In this document: piece after piece, positions 4,441 to 32,000 of the stretch | Position numbering within the stretch: the stretch's first letter is position 1 | How the letters are laid out: each line of letters begins with the position of its first letter | Assembly (NCBI GenBank): GCA_020632335.1 | Contig: JACKFV010000001.1 | Location: forward strand, 360,001-392,000 | Length of the DNA stretch: 32,000 bases | Direction of reading: 5' to 3' | Source of the DNA: Candidatus Saccharimonadota bacterium | GTDB lineage: Bacteria; Patescibacteriota; Gracilibacteria; UBA4473 | Notes under the pieces: generated by a model | What the model was told of the DNA's origin: nothing | Database searches by the model: none | Seen by the model: the letters and a program-made list of their open reading frames with translations, nothing else | Position numbers and translations under genes: made by a program

Positions 4441-5493
4441 TTAGAGGTAGTTCTGGCCCCGGTAGCGGCTGGTGAAGGTCTCGTCAGTTGCCTCGCCGTA
4501 GAAGGGCGTGACGGTGCGTCGCCAGCTGGTAGTCAACCCGTTCCACTTATTCCCAGACCGGCTCGTCCGCTCAGCCTGCACTACAGCAAAGGGCGTGCCA
4601 TATGCGAGGGTGTAGATCTGGTTCTCGCGCATCACCACCTGTAGCAGCACGGGGTTACCCGAGGTGTTGGTAAATACCATGTCGGGCGAGCCCGTGTAGG
4701 TAGTGGCGTCCATGCCGTCCAGGTAGTACTCGGGGTACCAGTAGGTGTGGTTGCGGCGCTCGTTTATCTGTAGCCCGGTGTTGAAGGCCACCTGGTAGGC
4801 CGCCGTGGAACTCTGGCAGACCCCCCCGCCTATGCCCCACTGCTCGGCGCTATTGAGGATAATCTTCGTGCGTTTGTAGCCCGTGCGCGCGCTCACTTCC
4901 CCGATGAGATGGTTATAACTCACCCGCTGCCCCGGCGCCACCCAGAGGCCGTCCAGCACCTGCATGGCCAGGGCGATATTGTCCTTGCGGTCGGGGCTCC
5001 AGTCGGTGAAGGTCTGGTAGCTCACCCCAATGAGCTCTTGTACGCCTGCTGCGCGTAGTGAGGGGTCACTCACCGAGTGGCTTACGGCCCCCAGTACATC
5101 GGGTAACGCCACATACTGCTCGTGCTGGTCTACATAGGTTTTAATGCTGTCCAGAAGCTCCACCGGCACGGTAAACCCTCGATAGTACTGCTGGCCATTA
5201 CTGGCGGTCTCCAGCACGGGGGGCTCAGGGGTAACGGGCACAGGAGGCGCCTGCGGCACCACTATGTGCGGTTTGGGCGCCACGATGGGGCTGGTGCTCC
5301 GCGGGACGGCCCGAGTACCAGACTTCCGCACAATGCGCAGCGGCGTACTGGCAGCCTGCGCCACCACGATATTTACATCGGCAAAGACGGGCATATAGCG
5401 TGCTGTGGGTACCTTAGCCATAGCCGAAGAGCTCCCCTCCAGCAAGAGGAGGAGCGCACCGAGCAGCGCGGTAGTAGTGTGGCGGAAGGTCAT
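4441..5493 (-). CDS. VanW-like secreted protein
   Basis: N-terminal signal peptide (ALLGALLLLLEGSSSAMA). The VanW core is GIGGGVCQSSTAAYQVAFNTGLQINERRNHTYWYPEYY..GMDATTY..DMVFTNTSGNPVLL. Confidence 0.8.
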   Translation of the reverse strand: MTFRHTTTALLGALLLLLEGSSSAMAKVPTARYMPVFADVNIVVAQAASTPLRIVRKSGTRAVPRSTSPIVAPKPHIVVPQAPPVPVTPEPPVLETASNGQQYYRGFTVPVELLDSIKTYVDQHEQYVALPDVLGAVSHSVSDPSLRAAGVQELIGVSYQTFTDWSPDRKDNIALAMQVLDGLWVAPGQRVSYNHLIGEVSARTGYKRTKIILNSAEQWGIGGGVCQSSTAAYQVAFNTGLQINERRNHTYWYPEYYLDGMDATTYTGSPDMVFTNTSGNPVLLQVVMRENQIYTLAYGTPFAVVQAERTSRSGNKWNGLTTSWRRTVTPFYGEATDETFTSRYRGQNYL

Positions 5494-9096: not shown

Positions 9097-10170
9097 CTAC
9101 CACTCTAGCGCGCTGCCGTGCTGGTACTCGGTCACGCGGGTCTCGAAGAAGTTTTTCTCTTTGTTCAGGTCCATGATCTCGCTCATCCACGGGAAGGGAT
9201 TCTCCGCCCCGTACTGCGCTGGCAGATTAATGCGCTCTAGGCGGCGGTCAGCGATATGCTGCAGGTACTGGTAGATGACATCGCTGCGCAGCCCGAGGAT
9301 ACCCCGCGGCAGCGCGTCCTGGGCGTAGGCGTACTCCAGCTCCACCGCGTGCCGTATATGGGCGATCTGCTGGGCCTGAAACTCCGGGGTCCAGAGCTCG
9401 GGGTTCTCGGCCACAATCGCGTTGATGAGGTACTGCCCAAAGGCCAGATGCACGCTCTCGTCGCGCAGGGTGTACTGGAATTGCTCGGCCACCCCCACCA
9501 TCTTCTGCTGCCGCATGAGGCTCAGCATCATGGCAAAACCGGCGTAGAAGAAGATCCCCTCCATGATGACATAGAAGCCGATGAGGTCACTGACCAGGGT
9601 CTGCTTGCCCTCCAGAGTCTCTATGTCTATCTGGTGGGCTGGGTCCAGCAGGCTGCGGGTCATATTGATGACAAACTCGTCCTTGGCCGCGATGCTGGGG
9701 ATGGTCTCGTACATGCTGTAGACCTCGTCGGGGTCCAGGCTCAGGCTATCGCAGATGTAGACGAACATGTCGTTGTGCACGGCTTCTTCATAGGCCTGGC
9801 GGAGGAGGTACTGGCGGCACTCGGGGTTGGTGATGTACTTGTAGAGGGTCAGCACGATGTTGTTGGCGGTCAGGCTCTCGGCGGTGGAGAAGAAGCCCAG
9901 ATTCCACAGGATCATGCGGCGCTCGTCCTCGCTTAGCACTGTCTGAGAGCGCCACTGCTCGATGTCGCCCATCATGGCTACCTCCTCGGGGATCCAGTTA
10001 TTCGCGATGCCATCCTTATAACACTGCCGCGCCCAGGGGTAGGTAATGGGCAGGAATTTATTCGGGTCCACCAGGCTCTCGGGCGCGAGGATGCCCCGAC
10101 GGCGCTTTTTCTCGCTGGCGGCTCTCTTATCAGCAGAGAGGCGGAGTGCGGCATCATGAGAGGTAGTCAT
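9097..10170 (-). CDS. nrdB: Ribonucleotide reductase small subunit, class Ic-like (R2c)
   Basis: Ferritin-like R2 motifs GFFSTAES, EEAVHNDMFVYI, IMEGIFFYAGF and RDESVHLAFG, with the C-terminus FFETRVTEYQH. The ATG at 10170 is preferred; the listed start at 10197 is a TTG overlapping the -10 box. Confidence 0.9.
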   Translation of the reverse strand: MTTSHDAALRLSADKRAASEKKRRRGILAPESLVDPNKFLPITYPWARQCYKDGIANNWIPEEVAMMGDIEQWRSQTVLSEDERRMILWNLGFFSTAESLTANNIVLTLYKYITNPECRQYLLRQAYEEAVHNDMFVYICDSLSLDPDEVYSMYETIPSIAAKDEFVINMTRSLLDPAHQIDIETLEGKQTLVSDLIGFYVIMEGIFFYAGFAMMLSLMRQQKMVGVAEQFQYTLRDESVHLAFGQYLINAIVAENPELWTPEFQAQQIAHIRHAVELEYAYAQDALPRGILGLRSDVIYQYLQHIADRRLERINLPAQYGAENPFPWMSEIMDLNKEKNFFETRVTEYQHGSALEW

Positions 10171-10308: not shown

Positions 10309-13300
10309 TTAGTTGTTGGTTTGTGGGATGGTGTCTACCTCGATTTGGTATCCGTTCATCCAGTCCATAGTGGTCCGGTCGGTTTGGATAGAAATGAGGT
10401 TAGCAGCCAGGTCAGACCAAACGATGTTGGCGGCGTAGTCTGCTGTAGCAGTACTTGCTGCTTGTGAAGCGATAGGATCCGCCCCCACGAAGAGTTGGAA
10501 GTCCTCGAGGTTCGGTGCAGAGTAGAGGCTATCGCGAACAATGTTCACGGTTACCCGTTCGTCTGCTTGTGTTGGGTTGGTATCTACTGTGTTAGCAATG
10601 AAAATCCCGTAGGTTTTCTTGCTGCTCAGGTATTCACCTCCTTCACATATTTCGCTTACAGAGTTGTGCTTACAGAAGTTCACCCGGAGGCGAGCTTGTG
10701 TCCAGCTTTCTCCTGTACCGTTACCGGCATCTACTACTCGTACGGTACCCACACTAAATGGTCGAGTACCCGGAGTGGTAGAACCGTTGATCTCTTCGAT
10801 CGTAACGATAGCAGGATTCCCAGCAGTACAGGTAGCACCTGCAGCACCAGGGTTAGTATCTACTACCGCAAAGTCACTGTCGTAGTGGTCTCCGGTAGCA
10901 AATGGACAGATAGTTTCAAAGCCATCCAGGGTGATGTCAAACGTCAGGCGTTTGATATTCACGGGGCCAGAAGCATCTGGAGTTACGGTGAAGTAGTACA
11001 CGGGTTTGTAGTTGCTGGCACCGGCTACCGCGCTGATAGGCGGTTGAACGGTATCATGCGATACGGCAAACTCTGTTTTGTGGACTACAAAGACTTCTCC
11101 GGTAGCAGAACCGTACCCAGAGATCAGGTTGCTTTCTGGTTGGAACTGGTTACCAGCGGCGTTCTCTACGGGATCGAGGTCGAGCCCGGTAGCAGACGTC
11201 ACGGCTTGCAGACCGTACATAGGATCACCAGATTGGGTGTCGGCACGGCGTTCGTCCAGTACCAGACGGAGCGCGTGACCGGTGTTCGCTACATTGTTGA
11301 TCGGATCAACCGTTACCTTCACGGTTACGGTCGTCATACCGTCTTTAGGGACGATGATACGAGAGGCGTTCCCGAGTTCGAAGTGCAGACGACCGTTGGT
11401 CATAGTATCGGTGTCGATCAGTTGACCAGCAGCGTTGTAGAGTTCGAATTTCAGCACGCTTCCGACAGCGTACTCGTTGATAACGATGTTACGGCTTGCC
11501 AGAGAGTCAGAACACTGACTTTCGTCTCCCAGAGAGTCGATGCCCTCAAAGGTAGTGACCGAACCGTCCGTAGATGGTCCAACACCGGCATTACCATACT
11601 GGTCTACATCTTTACACGCAAAGGTGGTAGAGTTGTAGACTCCCGCTGGGTAGTGAGGAGAGTAGAAGGGCGCTTGTGCACGCGTGAGCGTTGTACGAGC
11701 GTAGCCATCCAGATCCAGGTCGTTCATCAGGTAGATGTCGGTCACTTCTACTTTGTCATCGGTGGCAGCAAAGCGCAGCTCCAGTACTGGAACGCTGGTT
11801 TCGTTCTGCGTGATGATATCAGAGTAGATATTGGTGTTGATGTTCACCGTGAGGCGACCAGCATTGGTGAGTTGGAGCCATGCACCACAGAGGTAGTTGG
11901 TGGCATCCGTATCGGTCATGTTGTCGATCAGGTCACAGTCTTCTTCAGACGGTGCAGCGGTTTCGTCTACAGATGAACCGAAGAGAACATCGTTACCGTC
12001 AACGTCTACGCCTTCACAGATGGTCACATCCGTGCCGTTTTCAACGTTGTCGGCTTGGAAATCAGTCACGCGGAAGCGGATAACCGCACCGTTGATCGCT
12101 GATTTGATGATGGTGCCAGAAGCGAATCCGTAAGGAGCGGCTTCCGTACCATCATAGGTGAAGTTGGCACAGATAATGTTGTTGGTCGCAGACGTTACCG
12201 TAGCCGGTACAATAGCACCGGTAGCTTCGTCTTCAGTGAAGGTTACCCCCACACCAGAAGAGAAGTTGTGGCTGTTTTCTACGTCGAAACATGCGTTGAG
12301 CGTGCCAGCAAAGCCGAGACTCCAGCCGTTATTCACGTAGGTAATGCGACCCACGCGACCCACAACGTGCTTGGTAGAGCCACTGTAGGCGTGTGAGAAG
12401 TCGAAGGGCTCGTTGTAAGCCCCAGTACAGCTGGTTTCGGTAGGAGCTACTTCTACGTAGCCACCACCATAGGCAGGACACTCAAGGTTAGCGTCGGTGT
12501 CTACGTTAGCCGGAGCTACAGTAGGATCGAAGGTAGCAATCCCGTTCGTCGCATCAAAGGGTGCGGTTTCGTTCAGGATGTAGAGCTGATTAGCTGCCAG
12601 GATAGACATCCCACAGTAACCATCTTCGGTCGTAGCTACTGCAGTAGAACAGTCACCGCTGGTAGCACCTGCGGTGTCAGAACCGGTGATTTCATCGAAA
12701 GTCACGGTGAAGCCAGCGGCTGTCAGCAGTTGGTCGATGGTAGATACCCCATTACCAATAGCGAGGATACGGCGCTCTTCCCCTCCAGAAGACATCTCTG
12801 TCCCGTCAGGAGAGACCACCAGCGTGTCGCCTACTTTGAAGCAGGTAGCGCTGGTTACACGGAGTGTTTCGTCATCCTCAAACACGTTGTTGGTGAGGGT
12901 AGTCTTACAGTTATCCACCGTGACGGTCTGGGTAGTGGTGTTGCTTGCCAGGACTTCAGAAGTATCGACGATAAAGTCGAATTCTACTTGTTCTCCAGAA
13001 GGAATTACCACGCTCAGGTCACCAAAGGTGGCCCGACCAATACAGGTACCGTTACCAGTAGAAGAACCACTGATGGTGTCGAATGACTGTGGAGAGCCCA
13101 CTTGGGTACCGTTCACGAAGAAGGCACCAGTGATGTTCTCGAGCTGACAAGCAGACCCAGAAGCAACGGCTTCAACGGTAACAGACGTTACCACCGCGTC
13201 GCCAGAGTCGTTCAGCGTAGAGGTGAAGCTCAGGACATTGAGCCCGTCAGCCCCGGCTACGAAGCTGTCACCGTTGTTGTTCGGGTCAGACTTCGCGAGG

Positions 13301-15429
13301 GTGATCTTAGACTCTTGTACTTCTACGAATGAACCGGTACAGATACCAACGGTTTGGTCTTCTGCCAGACGATCACCGGTGGTGATGTATTCTGGAGATT
13401 CGAAATCATCAGCATTTGCTTTGAATTTGATCTGGTCATTCGTGTCAGCTTTGTCGTCGATGTTCATTACCAGTTTCATAGTAGACGTTCCCGTTACTTC
13501 GAAGGTGGTGTTGAAATCCAGACAGAAAGCTTCTACGCCGCTACCGCTACCGATAGCTGCGAGTTTGTCTTCACTATCTACGAGCGTGTCGTCGATGTAG
13601 AGACGGTAGTTAGAGAAAGCAGCGTTGAAGTCTGCCAGCTCATTAGCGGTACCGTTACCGTCTTTGTCAGCTACCTTAGAACCATCAGCCACACAGATGG
13701 TGATACCATCAGCTACGATAGGCTGTTGGGCTACGATACGACAGGTCTGGCCCACTGCATCGTCAGATCCAGGAGCGTACTCTTGGTTACCGAGTGATGA
13801 GGGGTCACGAGAGAGGGTAAGGTCACCAGCGTCCAGCGTGTAGACAGAACAGCTTGCGCGGCTGTCTTCGGCCAGACGACCTTCACTATCAACCACGCGT
13901 ACTCCGAATGAGGTACCGATTTCGATACCCACCATGTCTTCGGCGTTGTCGAGTTCGAATTTGATAGTGTCTCCTTGCTCAGCAGAGATCAGGTCTCCGC
14001 GGATAGAGAAGATGATGCTGTCCCCGTCTTCGAGGACAAGCCCGCCAGTCACGCCGTCATCCAGCAGGAAGCTCAGGTAGTCACCATCAACGATAGATTC
14101 TACAGAAACTTGCTCACCAGAAACGTAGAGAGCGGCGTTCGCCAGTACGTCTTCCAGGTCAGCGGTACCATCGTTTTTGAAGGTAACGGCTCGGAGGAGG
14201 ACGTCTTTGTTAGTGGCTGAGTCGTTCAGGAGTTTGAACTTCCCGATCTCAACGAATGAAGTACCAACACTCACGATGGTGTCAGCCCCCAGACAGTTGA
14301 ATTCTACTTCAGACACGGCGTATTCAGCGATACGCATTTCCTCCCCATCCACCGGGAAAGCCCCTACTACAGAAGTAGCGCTGCTCACGATGTCGTCAGG
14401 AGAAACGATAGCGAATCGAGAACTCTGACCGGCGTTATCTGGAGCCCCTTGCACATTAACGGCTTGGGCGTCATCCATAGAACACACCAGGTCACCCGTT
14501 ACGGTAGTACCAGCGGGTACCAGCATAGCGGGGTTGAAGCGTACGGTAGTAATGTCGTCAGTACTGACAGACGCTTCTTTAGAGATTTTGAAGCCTTCTA
14601 CTTCGAACCAACATTTGTCGAAGGCGTCGGCGTCACCCAGACCCAGACGAGTGAACGTCAGGCTTCCGATGTCGATGCTCGCGTCATCAGCAGCGGTGAA
14701 GGCTACTGTCGTGTACGGAACTGACACGGCGTTGAAGGGGATGTTGGTCCCCCGTGGAGTATCTGCTGAGAGCATGACCTCCAGCGTACCGGCTACAGGA
14801 CCGACAGGAACACTCCATTGGAGGAAGGCATTCCAGACGATAGCAGCGGTTTCTGCACGGGTAACTGGCAGTGCTGGACCAAAGGTACCATCACCGAAGC
14901 CATCCATGAGCTGGTAGTTGTACGCGGTTTCTACATAAGAGTAGAACCAGTCTGCAGACGTTACGTCTGAGAAGTGAGGCGCGCCAGTAGTGTCGGCGGG
15001 GAACTCAAAGGCGTTTACTACCATTTTAGCGATCTCAGCGCGGTTGATACCCACGCCTGGGCGGAACATCCCGTCAGGGTATCCGTTAATCCACCCGTAG
15101 TTGTACATTGTTTCGATATAATCGTAGTACCATTCACCTGGTTCTACATCGGGGAAATGTGGCCCCCCAGCGGTATCGAAAGGGATACCAGTGGCCAGTA
15201 CGATGATCTTCGCAACTTCAGCACGGTTCAGCTGTCGGTTAGGGGCAAACGAACCATCGTCGTTCCCAGAGAGAACGCCGAGATCCATCAGACCCTCGAT
15301 AGCTGGCTCAGCCCATGAAGGGATCGACAAATCGTCGGTGAACCCAAAGCTGGCTGCTGAAGCAACCGAGACGGTTGCTACCATTGCGAGGCTCATCACT
15401 GATGCCATTACTTTAGAAAAAGCAGTCAT
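10309..15429 (-). CDS. Giant (1706 aa) SLH-domain S-layer / surface protein
   Basis: Signal peptide MTAFSKVMASVMSLAMVATVSVASA. Three N-terminal SLH repeats lie at about 14815-15351 (WAEPAIEGLMDLGVLSGNDDGSFAPNRQLNRAEVAKII; WYYDYIETMYNYGWINGYPDGMFRPGVGINRAEIAKMV; WFYSYVETAYNYQLMDGFGDGTFGPALPVTRAETAAIV). The remaining approximately 1500 aa are T/D/N/G/V-rich and beta-type. Confidence 0.9.
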   Translation of the reverse strand: MTAFSKVMASVMSLAMVATVSVASAASFGFTDDLSIPSWAEPAIEGLMDLGVLSGNDDGSFAPNRQLNRAEVAKIIVLATGIPFDTAGGPHFPDVEPGEWYYDYIETMYNYGWINGYPDGMFRPGVGINRAEIAKMVVNAFEFPADTTGAPHFSDVTSADWFYSYVETAYNYQLMDGFGDGTFGPALPVTRAETAAIVWNAFLQWSVPVGPVAGTLEVMLSADTPRGTNIPFNAVSVPYTTVAFTAADDASIDIGSLTFTRLGLGDADAFDKCWFEVEGFKISKEASVSTDDITTVRFNPAMLVPAGTTVTGDLVCSMDDAQAVNVQGAPDNAGQSSRFAIVSPDDIVSSATSVVGAFPVDGEEMRIAEYAVSEVEFNCLGADTIVSVGTSFVEIGKFKLLNDSATNKDVLLRAVTFKNDGTADLEDVLANAALYVSGEQVSVESIVDGDYLSFLLDDGVTGGLVLEDGDSIIFSIRGDLISAEQGDTIKFELDNAEDMVGIEIGTSFGVRVVDSEGRLAEDSRASCSVYTLDAGDLTLSRDPSSLGNQEYAPGSDDAVGQTCRIVAQQPIVADGITICVADGSKVADKDGNGTANELADFNAAFSNYRLYIDDTLVDSEDKLAAIGSGSGVEAFCLDFNTTFEVTGTSTMKLVMNIDDKADTNDQIKFKANADDFESPEYITTGDRLAEDQTVGICTGSFVEVQESKITLAKSDPNNNGDSFVAGADGLNVLSFTSTLNDSGDAVVTSVTVEAVASGSACQLENITGAFFVNGTQVGSPQSFDTISGSSTGNGTCIGRATFGDLSVVIPSGEQVEFDFIVDTSEVLASNTTTQTVTVDNCKTTLTNNVFEDDETLRVTSATCFKVGDTLVVSPDGTEMSSGGEERRILAIGNGVSTIDQLLTAAGFTVTFDEITGSDTAGATSGDCSTAVATTEDGYCGMSILAANQLYILNETAPFDATNGIATFDPTVAPANVDTDANLECPAYGGGYVEVAPTETSCTGAYNEPFDFSHAYSGSTKHVVGRVGRITYVNNGWSLGFAGTLNACFDVENSHNFSSGVGVTFTEDEATGAIVPATVTSATNNIICANFTYDGTEAAPYGFASGTIIKSAINGAVIRFRVTDFQADNVENGTDVTICEGVDVDGNDVLFGSSVDETAAPSEEDCDLIDNMTDTDATNYLCGAWLQLTNAGRLTVNINTNIYSDIITQNETSVPVLELRFAATDDKVEVTDIYLMNDLDLDGYARTTLTRAQAPFYSPHYPAGVYNSTTFACKDVDQYGNAGVGPSTDGSVTTFEGIDSLGDESQCSDSLASRNIVINEYAVGSVLKFELYNAAGQLIDTDTMTNGRLHFELGNASRIIVPKDGMTTVTVKVTVDPINNVANTGHALRLVLDERRADTQSGDPMYGLQAVTSATGLDLDPVENAAGNQFQPESNLISGYGSATGEVFVVHKTEFAVSHDTVQPPISAVAGASNYKPVYYFTVTPDASGPVNIKRLTFDITLDGFETICPFATGDHYDSDFAVVDTNPGAAGATCTAGNPAIVTIEEINGSTTPGTRPFSVGTVRVVDAGNGTGESWTQARLRVNFCKHNSVSEICEGGEYLSSKKTYGIFIANTVDTNPTQADERVTVNIVRDSLYSAPNLEDFQLFVGADPIASQAASTATADYAANIVWSDLAANLISIQTDRTTMDWMNGYQIEVDTIPQTNN

Positions 15430-15949: not shown

Positions 15950-16024
15950 GAGTCGGTAGCTCAGGGGTAGAGCACTTGGCTTTTAACCAATTGGTCGTGG
16001 GTTCAAATCCCACCCGACTCACCA
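15950..16024 (+). tRNA. tRNA-Lys (anticodon UUU), CCA encoded
   Basis: Manual cloverleaf: acceptor GAGTCGG/CCGACTC, D arm GCTC-AGGGGTA-GAGC, anticodon arm CTTGG-CTTTTAA-CCAAT (loop CU-UUU-AA), variable TGGTC, T arm GTGGG-TTCAAAT-CCCAC, discriminator A plus CCA. Confidence 0.95.
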
Positions 16025-16071
16025 CAAGACATCTTCTCTACCGGCTCTCTCGGGCAGTGGCGTTTTTGGCG

Positions 16072-17172
16072 TTACTGGGGCATGAGACCAAAGTCCACCG
16101 CGAGGTTCACCTCCGTACCGGCGAAGGCCTCTACCCGGTAGCCAGTGGGGGATTTAGCAGCATTATTCCGCCAGGGGTTGGTCTTGACCGCATAGTGGGT
16201 ACTGCTGTGGCCCGCCGGAACCCGCAGCACCACCAGCGTAGTGGCAATGTCGGCTATGCCGGTGAACTGGTAATTCCCACTGGCATTGGTAGTCGTGGTT
16301 TGGAGGAGCGTGTCAGGGCTCGTCAGGCTATGGCTATTATCGGCGTCGCGGTATAGGTCTAGCACAGCGTCGCTGATGCCCGTGTCTGGTGGGTCAAAAA
16401 TACCGTTAGCATTCGCATCGAGGAACACGAGATCCCCCACTACCCCCTCGGCCGTACCGGGGAAGATAACCGGCGCCGCCAGAGCAGAGAGCTGCGCCAC
16501 CTCCAGCGTGGTAACGTGGTCATAGGAGCCCTCTGGCGCGGGAGCATCAGCTGGTGTATTCTCGGGCTCTTTCGGTTCTCTGGGCTGCACTGGTGCGGCG
16601 GAGAGGAGAGGTTCCTCATGTACTACGGGGGGAAGCGCTACCACAACAGCAGGTGCTGGAGCAGGCTCGGGCGCTGGAGATACTACCGGAACAGCTACTG
16701 CTATAGGGTCTGGAGTGGGAGGAACTGGGGCAGGAGACAGGACCACCACAATGGGAGGCTCCTGAGGGGTCTGTGGAGCTGCCGAGAGTGCTGGGGGAGT
16801 CACCACGGGCTCGGGGGTGGGCGTCGGCAGCGCTAGGGCCTCAGTGCGTGTAGGGCGCAGCGAGCGAGCCGGAGTACTCGCGTTATTACTGGTGGCTGTG
16901 ACCGTAGTCGTAGCCGGCTTCTCCGCAGTGCCGAGCAAGGGGGCCTCATATGGCCGAGCGACAACGGGCGTAGCTTTGCGCTCCCAGCGGATAGTCTGCA
17001 GGCGTATAGGAGTGAGCATAGGAGCTGGCAGTGCGGGAGTAGTAGCTGCTGGTGGCTGCATCACCGTGTCTTGCAGTGCGGGGGGGTGCACCACCGTGCC
17101 GGTATAAAAAGCGCCACAGAAGGCAGCTGCCCAGAGTAGTTGTCCGCCATATCGAGAGAAAAAAGCAAGCAT
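16072..17172 (-). CDS. N-terminally anchored Pro/Ala-rich surface protein with C-terminal SdrD-B-like domain
   Basis: The TM anchor is LLWAAAFCGAFYTGTVV, followed by about 170 aa of P/A/T/V-rich linker. Next comes GDLVFLDANANGIFDPPDTGISDAVLDLYRD..TTTTNASGNYQFTGI..LVVLRVPAG (SdrD B-repeat / Cna-B-type pattern). Confidence 0.7.
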   Translation of the reverse strand: MLAFFSRYGGQLLWAAAFCGAFYTGTVVHPPALQDTVMQPPAATTPALPAPMLTPIRLQTIRWERKATPVVARPYEAPLLGTAEKPATTTVTATSNNASTPARSLRPTRTEALALPTPTPEPVVTPPALSAAPQTPQEPPIVVVLSPAPVPPTPDPIAVAVPVVSPAPEPAPAPAVVVALPPVVHEEPLLSAAPVQPREPKEPENTPADAPAPEGSYDHVTTLEVAQLSALAAPVIFPGTAEGVVGDLVFLDANANGIFDPPDTGISDAVLDLYRDADNSHSLTSPDTLLQTTTTNASGNYQFTGIADIATTLVVLRVPAGHSSTHYAVKTNPWRNNAAKSPTGYRVEAFAGTEVNLAVDFGLMPQ

Positions 17173-17208
17173 CGGAGTATCTTAGCACAGCTTCTTTCCT
17201 CTTGACAA
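17173..17208 (-). promoter_or_regulatory. Candidate promoter of SdrD-B-like gene, leaderless type
   Basis: Minus strand reads TTGTCA(17208-17203)-18 nt-TAAGAT(17184-17179)-6 nt-ATG(17172). Confidence 0.45.
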
Positions 17209-17209
17209 G

Positions 17210-17243
17210 TAATACCCCTAGTGGAATTTCACTAGGGGTATTA
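17210..17243 (-). terminator. 14-bp perfect hairpin downstream of the adhesin gene (U-tract-less terminator or insulator)
   Basis: TAATACCCCTAGTG(17210-17223) / GAATTT loop / CACTAGGGGTATTA(17230-17243). It lies 24 nt after the stop at 17268. No T run follows on either strand. Confidence 0.4.
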
Positions 17244-17267
17244 GAGCCTCAGGAGCGATAGTCAGTA

Positions 17268-20105
17268 CTAGTTGATGCGTTCTGCCTTGAGGATATTCCG
17301 GTAGCGGACGTCTTTCGTACAGGTGAAGAGGATCGCGTCGGTGTCTCCTGCAGCGGCGATGAGACTGTCGATATCATCACCAGAGACGTTGATCACGTCC
17401 GTAATGCGGTACTCGATGACCTCTCCGCCACGGTCAAACTGGAAGGTGTCGCCGACCGTCACCTGGTCTATCAGCGGGCTGAAGACCGGACCGTAAGGAG
17501 TGGGGTCGCCTGGCCAGATGCTGCTGTGGGCAAAGATGATATCCGTGCCGGTGGTGACGTCTCGGTAGAATCCTGAGCCGGTATTTGTCAGCGCGTCCAG
17601 CCATACGCTGGGGGTAGCGATGAGCGTGTCTTGGCTGTAGACGTTCTGGATGGGGGTACCATTTACCGAGATCTGCGCGAACTGCACGTAGGCGTTGTCT
17701 CCGCTATCCAGCATGCGCAGGGTGCGGCGGAGCATTTCAAAGGCTTCTCCGCGGGTGACGATGTGCCCGGCGTCGGTGCCGATGAGCGCGTCTGGGAGGA
17801 GATTCATAGCTGCCATAGCGTCGATGTACGGGGCAGCCCAATTCTCACCATAAGTAGCTGCGTCAGCATGTGGCAGGTGCATGGTGCGCACGATGATCTT
17901 CGCGATCTCGCCAAAGCTGATGTTGTTCCCGGGCACGAACATACCGTCTATGTAGCCGTGCACTACGTCATCCGCTACCAGGTTCTCGGTGTAGTCGTAG
18001 TACCACTGGTCAGGGGTAACGTCTGGGAAAGTCTGGCCAAGGCAGTTGGTCTTCAGTCGCAGCTGGGCCGCGATGCTGATAATCTTGGTAACCTCGGCAC
18101 GGAGCAGGTTGGCGTCCAGCGCCATGATGCCGTCGTCACCGTAGCCGTCGATCACGCCCTGGTAGTAGAGGTCTACGGCTGCCTGGTAGTACTGGTGGTC
18201 GGCAGAGGTATCGGGGAAGATACTGAAGGCCTCGTAGTGAGTCCGCAGCCAGCCAGGCACCGAGCCCGTCAGGGGGATCACTTGTGCGAGCTCCAGGTTG
18301 TCAGGAGAGCGCACCAGCTGGACGTAGTCACATGCTGGGGGTTCTACCGCCGCGATAACTGGCGCAGGTGCTGGGGCTGGAGTGTTGGTCTGGTAAGGAG
18401 GAATGATGGCCTGTGCCGTCTGGTAGCTGAAGCTAGACGAACCGGAGAAGATACTCCCGCCGCCACCGGCCACGCTACCACCCCCTGCTGGAGGAGGCGT
18501 CACCGCTACATAGGGTGTCAGGTGCGTTACCGTGGGGTCGTCAGGGTTGCCGTCTGCATTTGAGTCGACATTCGTGGTATTCGCCGGGTCATCAGAGAGG
18601 TCTGACACACTGTACTCACTGCCGTCGGTGGCTTCTACCAGAGCTTGGTTGGTGACTTTTTTCGCGGTGATGTCAGCCGCCACAATGGTGTAGGTGGCCG
18701 TCCAGACAACACTCTCTCCCACCAGCAGGTCATCGCTCACGGTGTCGGCGTCCTCATCAGACCCACCAGAAGCGTAAGCCGGTACTGGCAGCGTGCCCGC
18801 TCCGGTGAAGGTCGCGGCGGTTTCGCTCACCACCACATTGTAGAGGGTTACGGTACCGGTGTTGGTCGCTGTGTAGGTATAGGTGATGGTCTCGCCCACT
18901 TGCGCGGTGCCGTTATTGTTCTGGTCGTTGAATACCGCGGTTTTTGTCAGGGCGATGAGCGCTGTAGTGAGCTCGGTCACTGTGGGGTCGTCGGGGTTGC
19001 CGTCGCCGTCAGGGTCGGTGTCTGTCACGTCAGCGGGGTCATCAGAGGCGTCGGTGACGTCTTCGTCGTCAGGGTCTGTACCGGTGACGAGCGCGCTATT
19101 GGTAACCGTGCCGGCCAGTACGTCAGCCGCGGTGAGCGCGTAGACCGCCGTGAAGGTGGTAGTATCGCTGTCGCCGGGGTTCATACTCGCGATGGGTCCG
19201 CCACTGACTGTCACCAGAGGATCGGTCACGGTGACGTCCGTCAGCACTACATTCCCGGTGTTTTCTACGGTGAAGGTGTAGGTGATGGTCTCGCCCACCT
19301 GCGCGTAGCCGTCGCCGTTCTCATCAGTGAAGGCAGCTTCCTTCAGCAGAGAAATAGAGGGGTCTGCCTCCAGCGAAGTTACGGTAGGGTCATCGGGTTC
19401 GCCATCGTCATTACTGTCGGTATTAGTGGTGTCGGTAGGGTCGTCTGAGGTATCGGTCACCACGGTATCATCAGCGTCTACGGCTTCTACCACGGCTTGG
19501 TTAGTGATCTGCCCCGCGGCGATGTCCTCGGCGGTGATGGTGTAGGTGGCCGTCCAGGTAACGCTCTGGCCTACTGCCAAGTCGTCATCTACGGTGTCGG
19601 CGTCCTGGTCAGATCCGCCAGAAACATACGCTGGCGCTGGCAGTATGCCCGTACCGGTGAAGGTAGCTTCGTCCTCCACAACTACTACGTTGTAGAGCAC
19701 TACATTCCCGGTGTTGGTCGCGGTGTAGGTGTAGGTGATGGTCTCGCCAGCCTCAGGGAGGGTGTCGGCGGTGAGGTCGTCGTTGAAGAGACCGGTTTTC
19801 TCCAGGCTGATGCTGGCTACTGCAAGTGCTGGAATGGTGATGACAGTGGGGTCATCGGGGTTGCCGTCTTCATTGGGGTCGGCCTCGGTGAGGTCAGCTG
19901 GGTCGTCAGAGAGGTCGCTGGCGGGCGTCCCTTCATCATCAGCGCCGGTGGCCAGGGCTTGGTTAGTGATGGTGCCCGCGGTGATGTCTTCCGCGGTGAG
20001 CGCGTAGTCTGCTGCCCAGGTAACCGTCTCACCGGTGAGGAGGTCGTCATTCACGGTGTCGGCGTCCTGGTCAGATCCGCCAGAGACGTAGGCTGGTACT
20101 GGCAA
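17268..20105 (-). CDS. Giant adhesin, C-terminal part: DUF11-type repeats + 3 SLH repeats + sortase-like domain (downstream frame of a frameshifted gene)
   Basis: It holds repeats of about 140-155 aa (LEKTxxFND..GETITYTYTxxNTGNVxLxxVxV..DDPTV with acidic DxDxDGxPDD loops), a G/P linker, SLH repeats at 17691-18218 and a sortase-like module at 17268-17690. The listed Met is a TTG. The frame continues upstream to the frameshift at 20121-20130. Confidence 0.85.
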   Translation of the reverse strand: MPVPAYVSGGSDQDADTVNDDLLTGETVTWAADYALTAEDITAGTITNQALATGADDEGTPASDLSDDPADLTEADPNEDGNPDDPTVITIPALAVASISLEKTGLFNDDLTADTLPEAGETITYTYTATNTGNVVLYNVVVVEDEATFTGTGILPAPAYVSGGSDQDADTVDDDLAVGQSVTWTATYTITAEDIAAGQITNQAVVEAVDADDTVVTDTSDDPTDTTNTDSNDDGEPDDPTVTSLEADPSISLLKEAAFTDENGDGYAQVGETITYTFTVENTGNVVLTDVTVTDPLVTVSGGPIASMNPGDSDTTTFTAVYALTAADVLAGTVTNSALVTGTDPDDEDVTDASDDPADVTDTDPDGDGNPDDPTVTELTTALIALTKTAVFNDQNNNGTAQVGETITYTYTATNTGTVTLYNVVVSETAATFTGAGTLPVPAYASGGSDEDADTVSDDLLVGESVVWTATYTIVAADITAKKVTNQALVEATDGSEYSVSDLSDDPANTTNVDSNADGNPDDPTVTHLTPYVAVTPPPAGGGSVAGGGGSIFSGSSSFSYQTAQAIIPPYQTNTPAPAPAPVIAAVEPPACDYVQLVRSPDNLELAQVIPLTGSVPGWLRTHYEAFSIFPDTSADHQYYQAAVDLYYQGVIDGYGDDGIMALDANLLRAEVTKIISIAAQLRLKTNCLGQTFPDVTPDQWYYDYTENLVADDVVHGYIDGMFVPGNNISFGEIAKIIVRTMHLPHADAATYGENWAAPYIDAMAAMNLLPDALIGTDAGHIVTRGEAFEMLRRTLRMLDSGDNAYVQFAQISVNGTPIQNVYSQDTLIATPSVWLDALTNTGSGFYRDVTTGTDIIFAHSSIWPGDPTPYGPVFSPLIDQVTVGDTFQFDRGGEVIEYRITDVINVSGDDIDSLIAAAGDTDAILFTCTKDVRYRNILKAERIN

Positions 20106-21912
20106 CGTGCCGGTACCCGTGAAGGAAGGAGCCGGCTTCTTCCGTCACCACCACGTTGTAGATGGTCGGCAGGGCGGTATTCTCCACCGTGTAGGTGTAG
20201 GTGATGGTTTCCCCTACAGAGGCCAGGCCGTCGCCGTTTTCGTCGTTGAAGACCGCGGTTTTCTCCAGGGTCATGGTAGCTACCCCACCGGCTACGACCG
20301 CAAAGCACTGAGCGGCATCATAGCCATTCATCGTGGCGTCATTTGCAGCGCCTACGCGGGTCATACCGCCATTTGGGTTGGTGACATCCAGGTAGTAGAG
20401 GCGGTCTGGGAAGCGCACGTAGAAGAGCCCATCAGTCCCGAAGAAAGCGGCCCCCGGGTAGCCGATGTTATTAGGCAGGTTGAGCGTCGGGAAGTAGGTA
20501 ACCGTCGCGGGGGTGGTGCTGGCGTCTATCTGCACCACGCGTCCGCGCCAATTGCCGGCATTAGTCCGCCAGACGTTGAAGCCGTAGATCATCCCGTCGT
20601 CATCGTTGTAGGCGTAGTCTTGTACGCTTTTGGGGTCTACCGTGGCCTGCTTGGCCGCGATGATGGTCATGTAGGTGGGGCTCAGTGGGTCGATATCTAT
20701 GAAGTGCAGGGTCTGGGGGTCTTGCCCGGTACCTACCAGATAGAGCTTCTGCACCGGGTCGATCACCCCATTGTTCACGCCTCCGGCCGCAGCGCCTGTG
20801 GGTAGACCCACGTTTTGCTCGAGGAGGATGGTGCCCGCGGCGTCAAAGACCACCACAGTATTAGGCCCATCATTAGTATTGCTGCCGCGAATAGAGTAGA
20901 AGAGGCCGTCTTCCGCATTCAGCGCCAGGGCATTGAGAATGTAGCCCCCACCGCCGATGTTCAGCAGATCGGTCACCACATTATCTGTAGAAATAGTGGC
21001 CAGCAGGGTGTCATTCCCCCCGGCGGTGTTGCGGTGGCTGAAGTACACGCTCGTGTCAGTATTACAGTCAATTACCTCGGTGGAGGTGGGCGGCTCTACG
21101 GCGAGCACGGGGTCTGCCACGCGGGCCACCAGCGCCAGAGGATCTATCGCCGGAGCGGCTTCTACTACGGGCTCTTCTACTGGTGGGACGAGCACGGCGT
21201 TGTCTACGCGTACCACGTCAGACTCCGTGAGTCGGAGCTTGATCTCGGCCAGTTTCAGCGCCTCGAGCTGTACATTAAGCGCGTCCAGCTCCGCAGCGTC
21301 GGTTTCTTCAAAGGTGAGATTCACCGCCTGCATGGCTTCCACGGTGGCCTTGATAGCCGCCTCGATGGTCTCAGCGGTGTACTCAGTGTAGTCCGTAGAC
21401 TCGGCCGGGTACCACGCGATGCCGTCCTCCACCGCGGGGGGCGTAGACGGTGTGTGCGCAGCAGCAGCCGCTGCAGCAGGTTCTTCACTGCCTGCTAGTG
21501 GGCTCACGATGTCTTCCGTCACTGGCGCCTCAGCAAGAAGGAGCTCCTCAGTAGGAGCTGTAACTTCTGTGGTAGTGTCTTCTGTGATTTCTGTGTCTGT
21601 GGTGGTGTCTGTATCAGGAGCTGTGACAGCAGCATCCTCAACAACAGCACTTCCCTCCTCTTCTACAGGAGTAGCAGAGGGGTCGGTACTCGGGGCTTCT
21701 CCTACCACTGCGGTGTCCTCTTCAACAGCAGCACTTTCCTCTGCCGAAGGGGCGCTCGAGTCTGGAGAAGGTGTAGGGTCCTCGGCAGGGGTCGAGTCAA
21801 CCACTACTTGGGCGGTAGCGGTGCCAGTGCTGAGCGCCGTAACCACCACCGCAGGGGTGACTATGTGCGACAAAAGCACTAGCAAGCTTGCTAGAGAAAA
21901 GTATTGCTTCAT
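20071..21912 (-). CDS. Giant adhesin, N-terminal part: signal peptide, acidic/coiled region, beta-propeller-like region, first DUF11-type repeat (upstream frame)
   Basis: Signal peptide MKQYFSLASLLVLLSHIVTPAVVVTALSTGTATAQ, then a D/E/T/A-rich segment. A region with recurring G-hydrophobic-Y/F strands follows (GLFYSIRG, KLYLVGTG, GMIYGFNV, GLFYVRFP). It ends in TLEKTAVFNDENGDGLASVGETITYTYTVENT..NVVVTEEAGSF and then runs out of frame to the stop at 20071. Confidence 0.85.
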   Translation of the reverse strand: MKQYFSLASLLVLLSHIVTPAVVVTALSTGTATAQVVVDSTPAEDPTPSPDSSAPSAEESAAVEEDTAVVGEAPSTDPSATPVEEEGSAVVEDAAVTAPDTDTTTDTEITEDTTTEVTAPTEELLLAEAPVTEDIVSPLAGSEEPAAAAAAAHTPSTPPAVEDGIAWYPAESTDYTEYTAETIEAAIKATVEAMQAVNLTFEETDAAELDALNVQLEALKLAEIKLRLTESDVVRVDNAVLVPPVEEPVVEAAPAIDPLALVARVADPVLAVEPPTSTEVIDCNTDTSVYFSHRNTAGGNDTLLATISTDNVVTDLLNIGGGGYILNALALNAEDGLFYSIRGSNTNDGPNTVVVFDAAGTILLEQNVGLPTGAAAGGVNNGVIDPVQKLYLVGTGQDPQTLHFIDIDPLSPTYMTIIAAKQATVDPKSVQDYAYNDDDGMIYGFNVWRTNAGNWRGRVVQIDASTTPATVTYFPTLNLPNNIGYPGAAFFGTDGLFYVRFPDRLYYLDVTNPNGGMTRVGAANDATMNGYDAAQCFAVVAGGVATMTLEKTAVFNDENGDGLASVGETITYTYTVENTALPTIYNVVVTEEAGSFLHGYRHVASTSLRLWRI

Positions 21913-23134: not shown

Positions 23135-24373
23135 CTAGGACGCCGTGATGAGCTCGGTACGCAGGGCCTCGGCCTCGGCTTCTACTTGCTCGTTGGCGGC
23201 CACCAGCGCCTCCTCATTAAAGGCCTGAGACTGCAGCAGCTGCTGCATGGCTTGGCCAGATTCGTGCTGGCGGGTGAGGGCTTTTTGTCGCATATCGGTC
23301 AGCTCCTTATAGGCCTTCTCATAGACGGGCAGGTAGTCCTCGACCTCTTTATCCACCGTGGCGATCTCTGTAGCGTAGGCGTCGTAGCTGGCGCGGATGT
23401 CGCTCAGTTTGCCCTCCAGCGACTGCAGCACCGCGAGGTTCTGGCGCTTGCGGTCCACCTCGGCCTGCATGGATTTTTTCTCGAGGATTTCGTTCTTGTG
23501 CTCCAGGTCTTCCAGGCCCTTGTGAATGGCGTCGGCCACCGCGTAGGAGCTGTGGATCTGGTTATGGATGAGGTTCTCGAACACCAGCGTGCCCAGGTTC
23601 ATGGTGAATTTCATCTCGACTTTATCCAGCGCAAACTTGGCCTTGACGATGCGATTGAGGCCCATGATGATGCGCAGCACGCTCACACTGCTGACCTGCT
23701 TCATGGCATTGAGGCTGACCTGGTAGTCCTTCAAGAATGCCCGTGAGTCTTCGCTGAGCGCCGCTCCCTCGGGTGAAGCGAGCAGCTGGGTGAGGAAGCG
23801 GTCGAGGTACTCCAGGCGCACTACGTCCTCCGTCACGGCTGGCAAGTACTCTCGTATGAGGCTGACCACGCTCTGGATGTCGGCTTTCTCGGCCTTGATG
23901 ATGTTCTCCAGCACCTGCACCTTGCCCTTGAGGTCACGCATGCCGTAGAGGAAAATCTCGCTCTGGGAGCGGAATCCGTTACGGAAGAAAGCGAAAATAC
24001 GGCCAAAGAACTTGCTCGTGGCCTCGGCGGTGGAGGCGTCTATGGCATGGGTGATCTCCTGGATTTCCTCCATGGTGTCGTCCAGCGAGCCACCGATGTC
24101 TTGGGTTTTGCCCGCTTCGGTAGCTTTCTCGAGCAGAATCTGCAGGCGCTGCTGCATCTGGTCATACTGGAGGAAGTCGGCAAACTGCGCGTTGAGGTCA
24201 TCTACCAGAGAGAAATTCGCCACCGAGAGCTTCTCCTCCAGGAGTTTGCGCACACGGCTGGCCTGCTCCGTGCTGGCCTCTATGCCCTTCTCGGCCTGCT
24301 CGGCGAGCATCTCCTGCACGGGTACGGCGGCGAGGGTAGTCTGGAGCTGCGCTGTGGTGATGGTATCTGCCAT
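23135..24373 (-). CDS. Coiled-coil protein, unknown function (possibly TelA/toxic-anion-resistance-like)
   Basis: A 412-aa, E/Q/L/A-rich heptad-like sequence with no TM and no catalytic motif. The overall length and the central FFGRIF..SQSEIF..L..KVQVLENI segment are reminiscent of the TelA family, but I cannot confirm this by eye. Confidence 0.5.
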   Translation of the reverse strand: MADTITTAQLQTTLAAVPVQEMLAEQAEKGIEASTEQASRVRKLLEEKLSVANFSLVDDLNAQFADFLQYDQMQQRLQILLEKATEAGKTQDIGGSLDDTMEEIQEITHAIDASTAEATSKFFGRIFAFFRNGFRSQSEIFLYGMRDLKGKVQVLENIIKAEKADIQSVVSLIREYLPAVTEDVVRLEYLDRFLTQLLASPEGAALSEDSRAFLKDYQVSLNAMKQVSSVSVLRIIMGLNRIVKAKFALDKVEMKFTMNLGTLVFENLIHNQIHSSYAVADAIHKGLEDLEHKNEILEKKSMQAEVDRKRQNLAVLQSLEGKLSDIRASYDAYATEIATVDKEVEDYLPVYEKAYKELTDMRQKALTRQHESGQAMQQLLQSQAFNEEALVAANEQVEAEAEALRTELITAS

Positions 24374-31816: not shown

Positions 31817-32000
31817 TCACTCCATCTGCTGAGCACGCACAAGAATACGCTCGGAGAGGTCGGTATTACAGGTGAAGAGGAGGGCGTCTGTCTCCGGCGA
31901 GCTATCCCGCAGGGCCTCAGCGTCGCGCTGGGAGATAGCGGTTTTCTCGATGATCACATAGTGCCGCGGCTGCCCATCCACCGTGAGGGTGAGGGTGTCG
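31817..32000 (-). CDS. 3' end of a gene encoding a sortase-like C-terminal domain (5' part outside window)
   Basis: The open frame from the window edge translates to ..DTLTLTVDGQPRHYVIIEKTAISQRDAEALRDSSPETDALLFTCNTDLSERILVRAQQME*, with the stop at 31817-31819. It is colinear with the adhesin C-terminus GDTFQFDRGGEVIEYRITDVINVSGDDIDSLIAAAGDTDAILFTCTKDVRYRNILKAERIN*. Confidence 0.65.
   Translation of the reverse strand, partial: DTLTLTVDGQPRHYVIIEKTAISQRDAEALRDSSPETDALLFTCNTDLSERILVRAQQME

Follow-up and report, generated by a model that had tools for sequence, protein, structure and literature searches.

What would a sortase do at the end of a surface protein, and what would be its substrate? 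The locus described here raises both questions. In the textbook view, sortase anchoring takes place at the membrane and has two components: a precursor is held back by its hydrophobic tail and processed by an enzyme that is itself membrane-anchored, with lipid II as the acceptor. The 32-kb stretch of DNA analyzed in this work (32,000 nucleotides, hereafter the window) comes from an uncultivated bacterium of the Peregrinibacteria group and encodes a giant surface protein, whose C terminus an earlier, sequence-only reading described as a sortase-like domain fused to an adhesin. The C-terminal sequence quoted in that reading is, on translation, the end of a 945-aa ORF (17268..20105, minus strand; stop codon 17268..17270), which carries repeats, a sorting motif, an SLH module and the sortase domain.

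The adhesin ends in a genuine sortase domain

The last ~142 residues of the ORF (aa 804-945; 17271..17696, minus strand) constitute a genuine sortase-fold domain. The triad is encoded by His860 (17526..17528), Cys929 (17319..17321) and Arg936 (17298..17300). The His and Cys codons had been correctly located, as had an arginine 5-7 residues after the cysteine: Arg934 and Arg936 stand 5 and 7 residues past Cys929, the latter being the one conserved in the family. With Pfam PF04203 (Sortase), the window domain passes narrowly, at 26.9-28.5 bits for a cut-off of 26.6 (a margin of less than 2 bits), and the 37 bits obtained with TIGR01076 (sortase_fam) fall slightly short of the required 39.35. Of the 38 family members, 31 match PF04203 (E<=0.001; lowest E, 2.6e-15). 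Searched against the PDB, the family profile has C. perfringens SrtD (4d70) as its best match (E=6e-9) and also retrieves S. aureus SrtA (2mlm, 1t2p, 1ija; E ~6e-8 to 1.5e-7); the profile alignment places the His, Thr-Cys and Arg of the family on the triad of 4d70.

An AF2 model of the last SLH helix and the sortase domain, built from a 38-sequence alignment, is confident (pLDDT 91.7, pTM 0.85), and its strand order and triad placement are sortase-like. The best 50 Foldseek matches in the PDB are all sortases (prob 1.0, TM 0.53-0.63), headed by class C enzymes (3o0p, 4g1j, 3g66, 2xwg; E 4e-8 to 1e-7, TM ~0.6). A model of the 330-aa cassette from the single sequence was unusable (pLDDT 41.7). 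Across the 38 relatives, the histidine is invariant, the cysteine is kept in 37 and the arginine in at least 90%, the only Cys to Ser change being found in P0025. The features proposed as checks of the sortase assignment (profile match, fold and triad conservation) are all present. Transpeptidase activity on an LPXTG-type signal is indirectly suggested by the xPxTG motif at the junction and by the LPxTG-ending genes beside short forms (see below).

The domain shares with canonical sortases (S. aureus SrtA, classes A-F, PF04203, MEROPS C60) the beta-barrel, a His after a beta-strand, a Cys at the end of a T-C strand and an Arg 7 residues further on. Class C and D sortases are the nearest solved structures, yet their identity to the family is just 16-22%, and the family domain has neither their lid segment nor their N-terminal membrane helix. 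None of the models for sortase classes A-F (NF033745-NF033748, NF058671, TIGR03784) came near its cut-off: the window domain scores 20-24 bits with class-specific NCBIfam models whose cut-offs are ~160 (class C, 160), and family members give weak, scattered matches to the C, D, F, E and GN models, so the family is left without a class assignment.

Architecture and reading frame of the gene

The sortase domain directly follows an SLH module (17697..18263, minus strand) composed of a conserved N-terminal extension, SVPGWLRTHYEA, and a predicted SLH triplet with LRAE, SFGE and TRGE helices. Pfam SLH (PF00395) matches the ORF at 3.7e-7. Of the three SLH repeats reported earlier, the second is significant when scored singly (E=1e-7, 32 bits), the first is marginal (E=0.12) and the third is undetected when scored alone against the profile; the ~60-aa periodicity and the three helices suggest that a third repeat is present. 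An SLH match was found in 9 of 10 homologues scanned. The module resembles those of SLH-anchored S-layer and S-layer-associated proteins of Bacillus, Paenibacillus and others (~190 aa, TRAE-like helices). Known SLH proteins are held non-covalently only; in the present protein, a sorting motif precedes the SLH module and a sortase follows it. Three SLH repeats score strongly in the adjacent S-layer protein of 1706 aa. No gene for a csaB-like pyruvyl transferase, as would go with SLH binding to a pyruvylated secondary cell-wall polymer, occurs within the 32-kb window.

Upstream, a Gly/Ser/Pro-rich linker (18315..18518, minus strand), noted before as G/P-rich and with comparable G/S-rich counterparts in homologues, connects the sorting signal to the passenger stalk. 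The stalk is a tandem array (18519..20277, minus strand) of five CLIPPER_2/DUF7507 (DUF11-type) repeats, whose ends are acidic (D-x-D-x-D-G-x-P-D-D-P-T-V). Profile scans of the ORF recover the four repeats originally counted (DUF7507, 1.6e-69 over 4 stretches; DUF11, 8.9e-12; TIGR01451 also matched), and a fifth DUF7507 repeat spans a frame change. I/LPxTG-type motifs and substrates built of isopeptide domains are typical of pilus sortases. CLIPPER_2/DUF7507 and DUF11-type families have been described as isopeptide-bond stalk domains (PMC12617251).

A 613-aa ORF in another frame (20071..21912, minus strand) makes up the 5' portion of this gene. It encodes, in order, a signal-peptide-like N-terminal segment recognized by eye, MKQYFSLASLLVLLSHIVTPAVVVTALSTGTATAQ, in agreement with the signal peptide previously placed in the upstream frame, an acidic low-complexity stretch, a globular region of ~250 aa and the beginning of CLIPPER_2 repeat 1, seen in the profile scan as a partial DUF7507 at aa 546-592. 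At the frameshift site (20121..20130, minus strand), 'tccttccttc' contains 4 extra nucleotides (CTTC/TTCC) relative to the 'acc ttc acc' of the paralogous repeats. Removal of 20121..20124 in silico fuses both frames into a single ORF of 1546 aa and completes DUF7507 across the junction (54.9 bits, model positions 3-104 of 105). This 4-nt frameshift may be a genuine mutation or an assembly error within the repeats; if it is real, it parts the signal peptide from the motif, SLH module and sortase, and the locus may be non-functional in this copy. An exact-product look-up with the 613-aa ORF gave no match, and Logan contigs break at the repeats.

The fusion of SLH module and sortase is confirmed in an independent assembly. 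A Logan contig (L007) is identical to window positions 15989..18548, and more than 30 homologues have the same architecture in single ORFs, which excludes the join of two genes by misassembly that the sequence-only reading had named as a possible refutation. The enzyme-on-adhesin fusion is, as that reading claimed, real; it is also recurrent and has an intact catalytic triad. Genetic code 25 (UGA = Gly), considered on account of matches to Gracilibacteria, was rejected: TGA ends the map gene and the P0004-like gene (see below) where their lengths predict a stop, and table 11 leaves the long ORFs intact.

A sorting motif at the passenger/cassette junction

Between the linker and the cassette stands VRSPDNLELAQV-IPLTG, which forms an extended sorting signal (18264..18314, minus strand; residues 598-614 of the ORF). 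IPLTG itself (18264..18278) is directly upstream of the SLH-sortase cassette, with a predicted scissile bond Thr613|Gly614, and the protein thus appears to carry its own anchoring enzyme. The earlier statement that no surface protein of the window ends in an LPXTG-type signal is literally true, but in substance the premise that a sorting signal is absent was mistaken, as it passes over this internal motif before the SLH module. The S-layer protein of the window ends in ...DTIPQTNN, and a homologue search with its C-terminal 300 aa, aimed at the conservation of this end, found none.

Of the 31 relatives whose sequence extends upstream beyond the cassette, 28 have [ILVFWY]PxTG at the same place and the remaining three have decayed motifs (IPQRL, IPFLQ and FPQLG). 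In a set of 29 sequences, the first position is [ILVFWY] in 29, Pro and Gly are each kept in 29 and Thr in 28. The motif is preceded by a conserved R-x2-[DN][DN]-hydrophobic element, whose positions are kept in 20/29 (R, -11), 25/29 ([DN], -8), 24/29 ([DN], -7) and 27/29 (hydrophobic, -6). The spacing between motif and cassette is short and constant in ~28 sequences. Family proteins contain 39 matches to the motif in 46,972 residues (0.0008 per residue), about two-thirds of which are the junction motifs. All motif-bearing long forms retain their own triad, and in P0025 the loss of the catalytic Cys coincides with a Thr to Leu change in the motif. This xPxTG at the junction, its absence from stand-alone short forms and the LPxTG-ending genes just upstream of three of them (see below) lend strong comparative support to the putative self-processing, which the earlier reading had suggested beside covalent locking to the wall or S-layer and polymerization. 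The idea that the motif is a structural part of the cassette was discarded, as short family members do without it, their signal peptide being joined right after the Gly position.

Fused and split members of the family

The family comprises dozens of homologues of 1100-4800 aa, each intact in a single ORF, along with short relatives consisting of a signal peptide, SLH module and sortase and devoid of the junction motif. These homologues came from an exhaustive profile search. A word-indexed search returned P0001 alone, in which HsdM_N is joined to an SLH tail and sortase on a chimeric-looking 2-kb contig with coverage of ~1; the same type of search with the family alignment returned nothing. 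A scan of genome contigs with 7 sequences gave 3 loci, and a scan of metagenome contigs gave the P0017 contigs again and no others. The enzyme has no N-terminal membrane anchor in either form, as the domain of long forms is C-terminal, after the SLH module, and short forms have a signal-peptide-like N terminus. A hydrophobic (TM-like) N-terminal segment does occur in P0013 and P0015, where it precedes the motif or decayed motif.

A second family member lies at the end of the window itself. The last 60 codons and TGA stop of a short, stand-alone SLH-sortase, P0004 (31817..32000, minus strand), are included, and the gene runs past the window end, just upstream of dnaA; contig L009 overlaps this end with 0 mismatches over 6512 nt. 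P0004 has 351 aa and is recorded at NCBI as MCB9809708.1, 'sortase [Candidatus Peribacteria bacterium]'. Six loci of short forms were inspected, and in three of them the next gene upstream ends in LPxTG. That of P0004 encodes a protein of 127 aa that has a hydrophobic (TM-like) stretch at its N terminus and ends in ...REANNLELLSV-LPLTG-VLR, that of P0017 ends in ...LPTTG-K, and that of P0018 encodes a 649-aa secreted protein with a canonical signal of LPTTG, hydrophobic segment and KQ. The split substrates of P0004 and P0017 therefore stop 1-3 residues past the Gly. A six-frame scan of the loci collected up to then found only these two neighbors (L009/L010 and L011) to end with a motif at most 8 residues before the stop; it predates the P0018 loci, and the P0018 neighbor has a long hydrophobic tail past its motif. 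In P0013 (476 aa), the equivalents of the 127-aa protein and P0004 are fused. As part of the cis-acting reading developed below, we tentatively read the family as a stepwise series, which may lead from a canonical substrate adjoining an SLH-sortase, through substrates with minimal tails, to full fusions.

Proposed mechanism

Based on the above comparisons, we propose that the protein is probably a self-sorting surface protein with the order passenger, motif, SLH, sortase, in which the tethered sortase would cut T|G and move the CLIPPER_2 stalk to a wall amine. Frameshift aside, the gene would encode a 1546-aa secreted fibrillar adhesin with a C-terminal kit of recognition element and IPLTG, SLH module and sortase. 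The precursor would be exported by Sec, and its SLH module would dock non-covalently on a wall polymer. The tethered sortase would then cut Thr613|Gly614 in its own chain or in a neighboring molecule; own-chain cleavage is considered because the distance between motif and cassette is short and constant. Attack would leave a thioacyl intermediate on Cys929, from which an amine nucleophile could take over the stalk. A stem peptide of peptidoglycan is the most plausible nucleophile, and the result would be the covalent fixation of a load-bearing adhesin. The freed Gly-SVPGWLR...SLH-sortase fragment could stay in the wall as a free enzyme. This fragment is 1 residue longer than the predicted mature short form (signal peptidase cleavage after GLAEA in P0004, by eye). 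Catalysis, its cis or trans mode and the identity of the nucleophile are what we infer from these data.

A more specific version, to which we give a little less than even weight, is that the cassette is a natural, membrane-independent, cis-acting module for autoprocessing and ligation, each precursor being its own substrate. Under this version, the C-terminal sortase might cut the adjacent xPxTG of its own chain once docked on the wall and ligate the passenger to peptidoglycan that is already mature, to an S-layer protein or to some partner protein, with no part for lipid II or a membrane enzyme, and the sortase might persist as a free, wall-resident enzyme. Engineered sortase-LPXTG fusions self-cleave, which illustrates the feasibility of cleavage within a single chain (PMC2901362).

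The strongest competitor to self-sorting is processing in trans only. In that case the P0004 paralogue or an unseen membrane sortase would cut the junction motif, other substrates would be left to the fused sortase, and the fusion would merely bring enzyme and adhesin together to the wall. The stand-alone P0004 is encoded ~12 kb away and could do all the processing, one genome (MAG-8) holds two long forms and one short form, and short forms adjoin separate LPxTG substrates, which means that trans action exists in the family. However, a trans substrate would have no need of the constant, short motif-cassette spacing, each motif-bearing long form keeps its own triad, and in P0025 the catalytic Cys and the motif Thr are lost together; we therefore regard an exclusively trans mode as unlikely, at perhaps one chance in several.

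A protease for shedding is a good deal less probable. Here the sortase would hydrolyze Thr|Gly and the stalk would leave its SLH anchor for the environment or a host cell, a reading which draws on the same motif and triad and on the slow hydrolysis of the acyl intermediate by sortases when an amine nucleophile is absent. Against it, the isopeptide-type stalk domains of which the passenger is made are typical of adhesins and pilins that bear load and are attached to the wall, the canonical cell-wall sorting signal of the P0018 neighbor implies wall anchoring, and SLH anchoring followed by cutting off calls for an extra rationale. Lastly, a degenerate pseudo-sortase with a structural or binding role, or a fusion created by assembly or gene calling, as the borderline curated-model scores of the window copy, its frameshift and the chimeric-looking contig of the first homologue, P0001, might suggest, is highly improbable and already largely refuted by the conserved triad, the confident sortase-fold model with its Foldseek matches, the identical L007 and the dozens of intact single-ORF homologues.

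Comparison with known systems and implications

The proposed self-sorting arrangement resembles canonical sorting in having an [I/L]PxTG motif N-terminal to a retention segment, and the P0018 neighbor has the full canonical LPTTG tail. It departs from it in that enzyme and substrate are one polypeptide, an SLH tether takes the place of the membrane anchor, and the motif is preceded by a conserved R-x2-[DN][DN]-hydrophobic element. The retention segment differs as well: where a canonical signal has its hydrophobic helix and charged tail, the long forms, the window protein included, continue with SLH module and sortase. No description of the passenger-motif-SLH-sortase arrangement was found in the literature, nor of an SLH protein carrying a sortase in the literature retrieved. 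Engineered fusion tags such as those of the BISOP method also combine a sortase and an LPXTG site in one chain and self-cleave (PMC2901362); they are artificial and made for protein purification, whereas the family described here is natural and has the order passenger-motif-SLH-sortase.

The C-terminal domain of Hedgehog/Hint proteins forms a thioester with the N-terminal passenger, gives it to a nucleophile and remains as a fragment. The logic of the proposed cassette would be similar by analogy, without homology, as fold and chemistry are unrelated: Hedgehog/Hint proteins use an N-S acyl shift, whereas the sortase Cys attacks a Thr-Gly bond.

If the proposed mechanism is true, covalent surface display can be organized inside the wall with one enzyme per cargo, and the retention element is a wall-binding SLH module and the enzyme a part of its substrate, in departure from the textbook scheme. 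CPR bacteria of the Peribacteria/Peregrinibacteria kind are ultra-small and live attached to other cells, and the mechanism would help to explain how very long adhesins are fixed to their thin envelope. The extended element R-x2-[DN][DN]-hydrophobic-x5-[I/L]PxTG may confer specificity, and a compact natural cassette for self-cleavage and ligation could serve protein engineering. The architecture also offers an annotation rule for pipelines, an example being P0012, which is now named just "DUF2341 domain-containing protein".

Identification of the sortase domain

The C-terminal sequence of the adhesin ORF (17268..20105, minus strand; 945 aa) is as quoted in the sequence-only reading, which proposed a sortase there and gave the correct codons for His860 (17526..17528) and Cys929 (17319..17321); the arginine that it expected after the cysteine is also present, the conserved one being Arg936 (17298..17300). 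The Pfam Sortase model matches aa 838-943 with 26.9 bits (28.5 bits for the isolated domain), above its gathering cut-off of 26.6 bits, and the NCBIfam model TIGR01076 (sortase_fam) scores 37 bits, just under its cut-off of 39.35. Pfam also recognizes DUF7507 in four stretches (1.6e-69), DUF11 and one significant SLH repeat: of the three SLH repeats claimed, the second is clear (E=1e-7 alone), the first marginal (E=0.12) and the third undetected on its own.

When 1.84 billion representatives were searched exhaustively with the profile, 90 matched, 37 of them with E <1e-10. Aligned with the window sequence, these 37 (38 sequences in all) show that the triad is conserved among relatives, with an invariant His, Cys in 37/38 and Arg in at least 90%, and 31 of the 38 match Pfam Sortase. 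The solved structures matched by the profile of this alignment are sortases only, including C. perfringens SrtD (4d70, E=6e-9) and S. aureus SrtA (~6e-8 to 1.5e-7), and the printed alignment with 4d70 holds His, Thr-Cys and Arg in register. In the AlphaFold2 model built on the alignment (pLDDT 91.7, pTM 0.85), the His follows a strand, the Cys sits at the end of the penultimate strand and the Arg at the start of the last one; every one of the 50 best Foldseek matches in the PDB is a sortase, from class C, A or D (prob 1.0, TM 0.53-0.63). The C-terminal domain of the adhesin is thus a real sortase domain and part of a real family, whose predicted fold carries an intact, conserved triad. The family does not come near any class-specific NCBIfam model (classes C to F, GN), and we therefore place it in no sortase class.

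A C-terminal cassette with variable passengers

In most profile matches the sortase domain occupies the extreme C-terminus of proteins of ~330 to 4811 aa. Ten members were scanned over their full length and carry SLH (9/10) and Sortase (8/10; E<=0.01) at the C-terminal end, while their N-terminal passengers vary (DUF11, GEVED, DUF4114, FctA-like). The fusion is not an assembly join of two genes, as an independent Logan contig (L007, run SRR12358676) is identical to window positions 15989..18548, a stretch that takes in the linker, the junction motif described below, the SLH module, the sortase domain and the next gene. Intact single-ORF homologues are also present in MAGs labelled Candidatus Gracilibacteria (loci L002, 1698 aa, and L004). 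One of these genomes (MAG-8, JAHDHX01; loci L002 and L003) encodes at least three family members: the long forms P0003 (1698 aa, IPSTG) and P0020 (4811 aa, LPRTG) on one 204-kb contig, and the short form P0005. The coexistence of two long forms and one short form suggests that the SLH-sortase cassette is a C-terminal module reusable within one genome.

The adhesin gene of the window is split in two: the signal-peptide-bearing ORF (20071..21912) overlaps the adhesin ORF in another frame. Relative to the paralogous repeats, the first CLIPPER_2 repeat contains a 4-nt insertion resembling a tandem duplication ('tccttccttc', 20121..20130, minus strand), and deletion of four nucleotides there restores a single 1546-aa ORF with a complete DUF7507 across the junction (54.9 bits vs 20.6 bits truncated). 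No independent assembly crosses this site; the insertion could be a real change, either pseudogenizing or phase-variable, or a consensus error in repeats.

A sorting motif precedes the cassette

The sequence-only reading saw no sorting signal at the ends of the surface proteins and overlooked one inside the adhesin: IPLTG (18264..18278, minus strand; aa 610-614). In essentially all members with an upstream region, an [ILVFWY]PxTG pentapeptide directly precedes the cassette start, VPxWLRxxYxAxSxFxD. We counted residues around the motif in 29 sequences, of which 27 are family proteins and the others the window sequence and the 127-aa protein described below. Position 0 is [ILVFWY], +1 Pro and +4 Gly in 29/29 each, and +3 is Thr in 28/29 (one Ser); upstream, Arg occupies -11 in 20, Asp/Asn -8 in 25 and -7 in 24, and a hydrophobic residue -6 in 27. 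Family proteins totalling 46,972 residues contain 39 copies of the motif (0.0008 per residue), roughly two in three of them at the junction. The family thus has a conserved sortase-type motif ahead of the cassette, with a fixed spacing between the two. The motif has decayed in three members: P0008 (IPQRL) and P0015 (IPFLQ), which have short N-terminal extensions only, and P0025 (FPQLG), the sole member with Ser in place of the catalytic Cys. The short forms P0004, P0005, P0017, P0021 and P0024 lack it, their signal peptide abutting the cassette, as does P0018, whose called start is uncertain. With the signal-peptidase cut read by eye after GLAEA, mature P0004 would start one residue past the position of the motif Gly.

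The 1706-aa SLH-bearing S-layer protein (10309..15429, minus strand) ends in ...IEVDT-IPQTN-N, its sortase-motif-like pentapeptide (10312..10329, minus strand) lying two residues before the stop, which recalls the minimal-tail substrates found beside short forms. Asn takes the place of the invariant Gly, and no R/DN/hydrophobic element precedes the pentapeptide; as we found no homologues in which to check its conservation, it may be due to chance.

Short forms and their upstream neighbours

A profile scan of the six frames of the window revealed a second family member, P0004, whose gene is cut by the window end: its last 60 codons lie at 31817..32000 (minus strand), and it continues at 9642..10697 of L009, a 17-kb Logan contig overlapping the window end without mismatch. 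P0004 is a 351-aa stand-alone SLH-sortase directly upstream of dnaA (NCBI MCB9809708.1, 'sortase [Candidatus Peribacteria bacterium]'). Upstream of it, just beyond the window, L009 encodes a 127-aa protein whose N-terminal segment is hydrophobic (TM-like) and whose C-terminus reads ...TREANNLELLSV-LPLTG-VLR; the two genes share a frame and are separated by one TAG and 9 nt, P0004 having its own signal peptide. Their fused counterpart is P0013 (476 aa). The gene immediately upstream of P0017 ends in ...LPTTG-K, and that upstream of P0018 encodes a 649-aa secreted Ig-like protein with a canonical LPTTG, hydrophobic and KQ end. No upstream neighbour of the LPxTG kind was seen at the P0005, P0021 and P0024 loci. 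A six-frame scan of the loci other than those of P0018, covering 546 segments no shorter than 80 aa, found the motif no more than 8 residues from the stop only in the ORFs upstream of P0004 and P0017.

At three of these six loci a family enzyme is thus paired with an LPxTG substrate. With the fusions included, the family spans three arrangements: a canonical substrate with an adjoining SLH-sortase, a minimal-tail substrate with an adjoining SLH-sortase, and substrate and enzyme fully fused.

Proposed mechanism

We propose that the precursor would be exported by Sec and dock on the wall through its SLH module, whereupon Cys929 would attack the predicted scissile bond, Thr613-Gly614, in cis or between neighbouring molecules; the fixed and short spacing between motif and cassette favours attack in cis. 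The CLIPPER_2 stalk would then be handed to an amine, and an SLH-sortase fragment starting with Gly, equivalent to the short forms, would be set free. Peptidoglycan is the most plausible acceptor, both because the stalk domains are isopeptide-stabilized, load-bearing modules (PMC12617251) and because one family enzyme, P0018, adjoins a canonical wall-sorting substrate.

Processing of the motif exclusively in trans, by a paralogue, is unlikely though worth keeping in mind: a stand-alone paralogue, P0004, is encoded at the window edge, and the fixed, short spacing speaks for cis attack. Hydrolytic shedding of the adhesin, in which the stalk would be released, seems very improbable beside transfer to peptidoglycan, for which the load-bearing stalk argues. 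A pseudo-enzyme or an artefact is largely excluded, given the conserved triad and the identical independent contig.

Directly downstream of the adhesin lies a gene (16072..17172, minus strand) whose 366-aa product carries a hydrophobic anchor at its N-terminus, a long spacer rich in Pro and Ala, and an SdrD_B domain (CnaB-type, isopeptide family) at its C-terminus. This protein could be a partner or acceptor in the sortase reaction. After the adhesin stop comes an inverted repeat ('taatacccctagtg...cactaggggtatta'); positions 17208..17179 hold a promoter-like site.

Relation to known sortases

The chemistry of the adhesin sortase is presumably the known one; the organization of substrate, SLH module and sortase in one protein is new. 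Sortases are reported to be frequent in CPR genomes (PMC6744442, PMC4736985). In our literature search no paper described a natural sortase that is tethered by SLH or joined to its substrate in one chain, and the self-cleaving sortase fusions that it turned up were engineered ones only (PMC2901362). Database names are 'sortase' for a short form and just 'DUF2341 domain-containing protein' for one long form. A separate group (P0046, P0048, P0052, P0058 and P0066; ~300-460 aa) combines SLH, matched strongly by P0066 and weakly by the rest, with a high-scoring Sortase domain of canonical kind (59-76 bits, 'LILYTCWPPD' type), so that SLH tethering of sortases extends beyond the adhesin family; P0046 and P0047 have signal-peptide-like N-terminal segments.

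Other features of the window

A VanW-like protein is encoded in the window (4441..5493, minus strand) and, on an unrelated metagenome contig (L011, 1678..3063), two genes downstream of P0017, which could be a coincidence or a shared wall-related neighbourhood. Between the DHH phosphoesterase and map genes, 23135..24373 (minus strand) encodes a 412-aa protein in which Glu, Leu and Gln abound and which matches no Pfam model. The window belongs to a bacterium of the Peribacteria/Peregrinibacteria group. Its code is standard, TGA ending both map and the P0004-like gene, which is notable because the sister lineages Gracilibacteria and Absconditabacteria reassign UGA. Despite a G+C content of 57%, TGA is rare among the stop codons of 21 window ORFs, with 2 cases (one in the frameshifted ORF) against 12 of TAG and 7 of TAA. 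The window also carries CPR-typical genes, such as that for a T4SS-type pilin.
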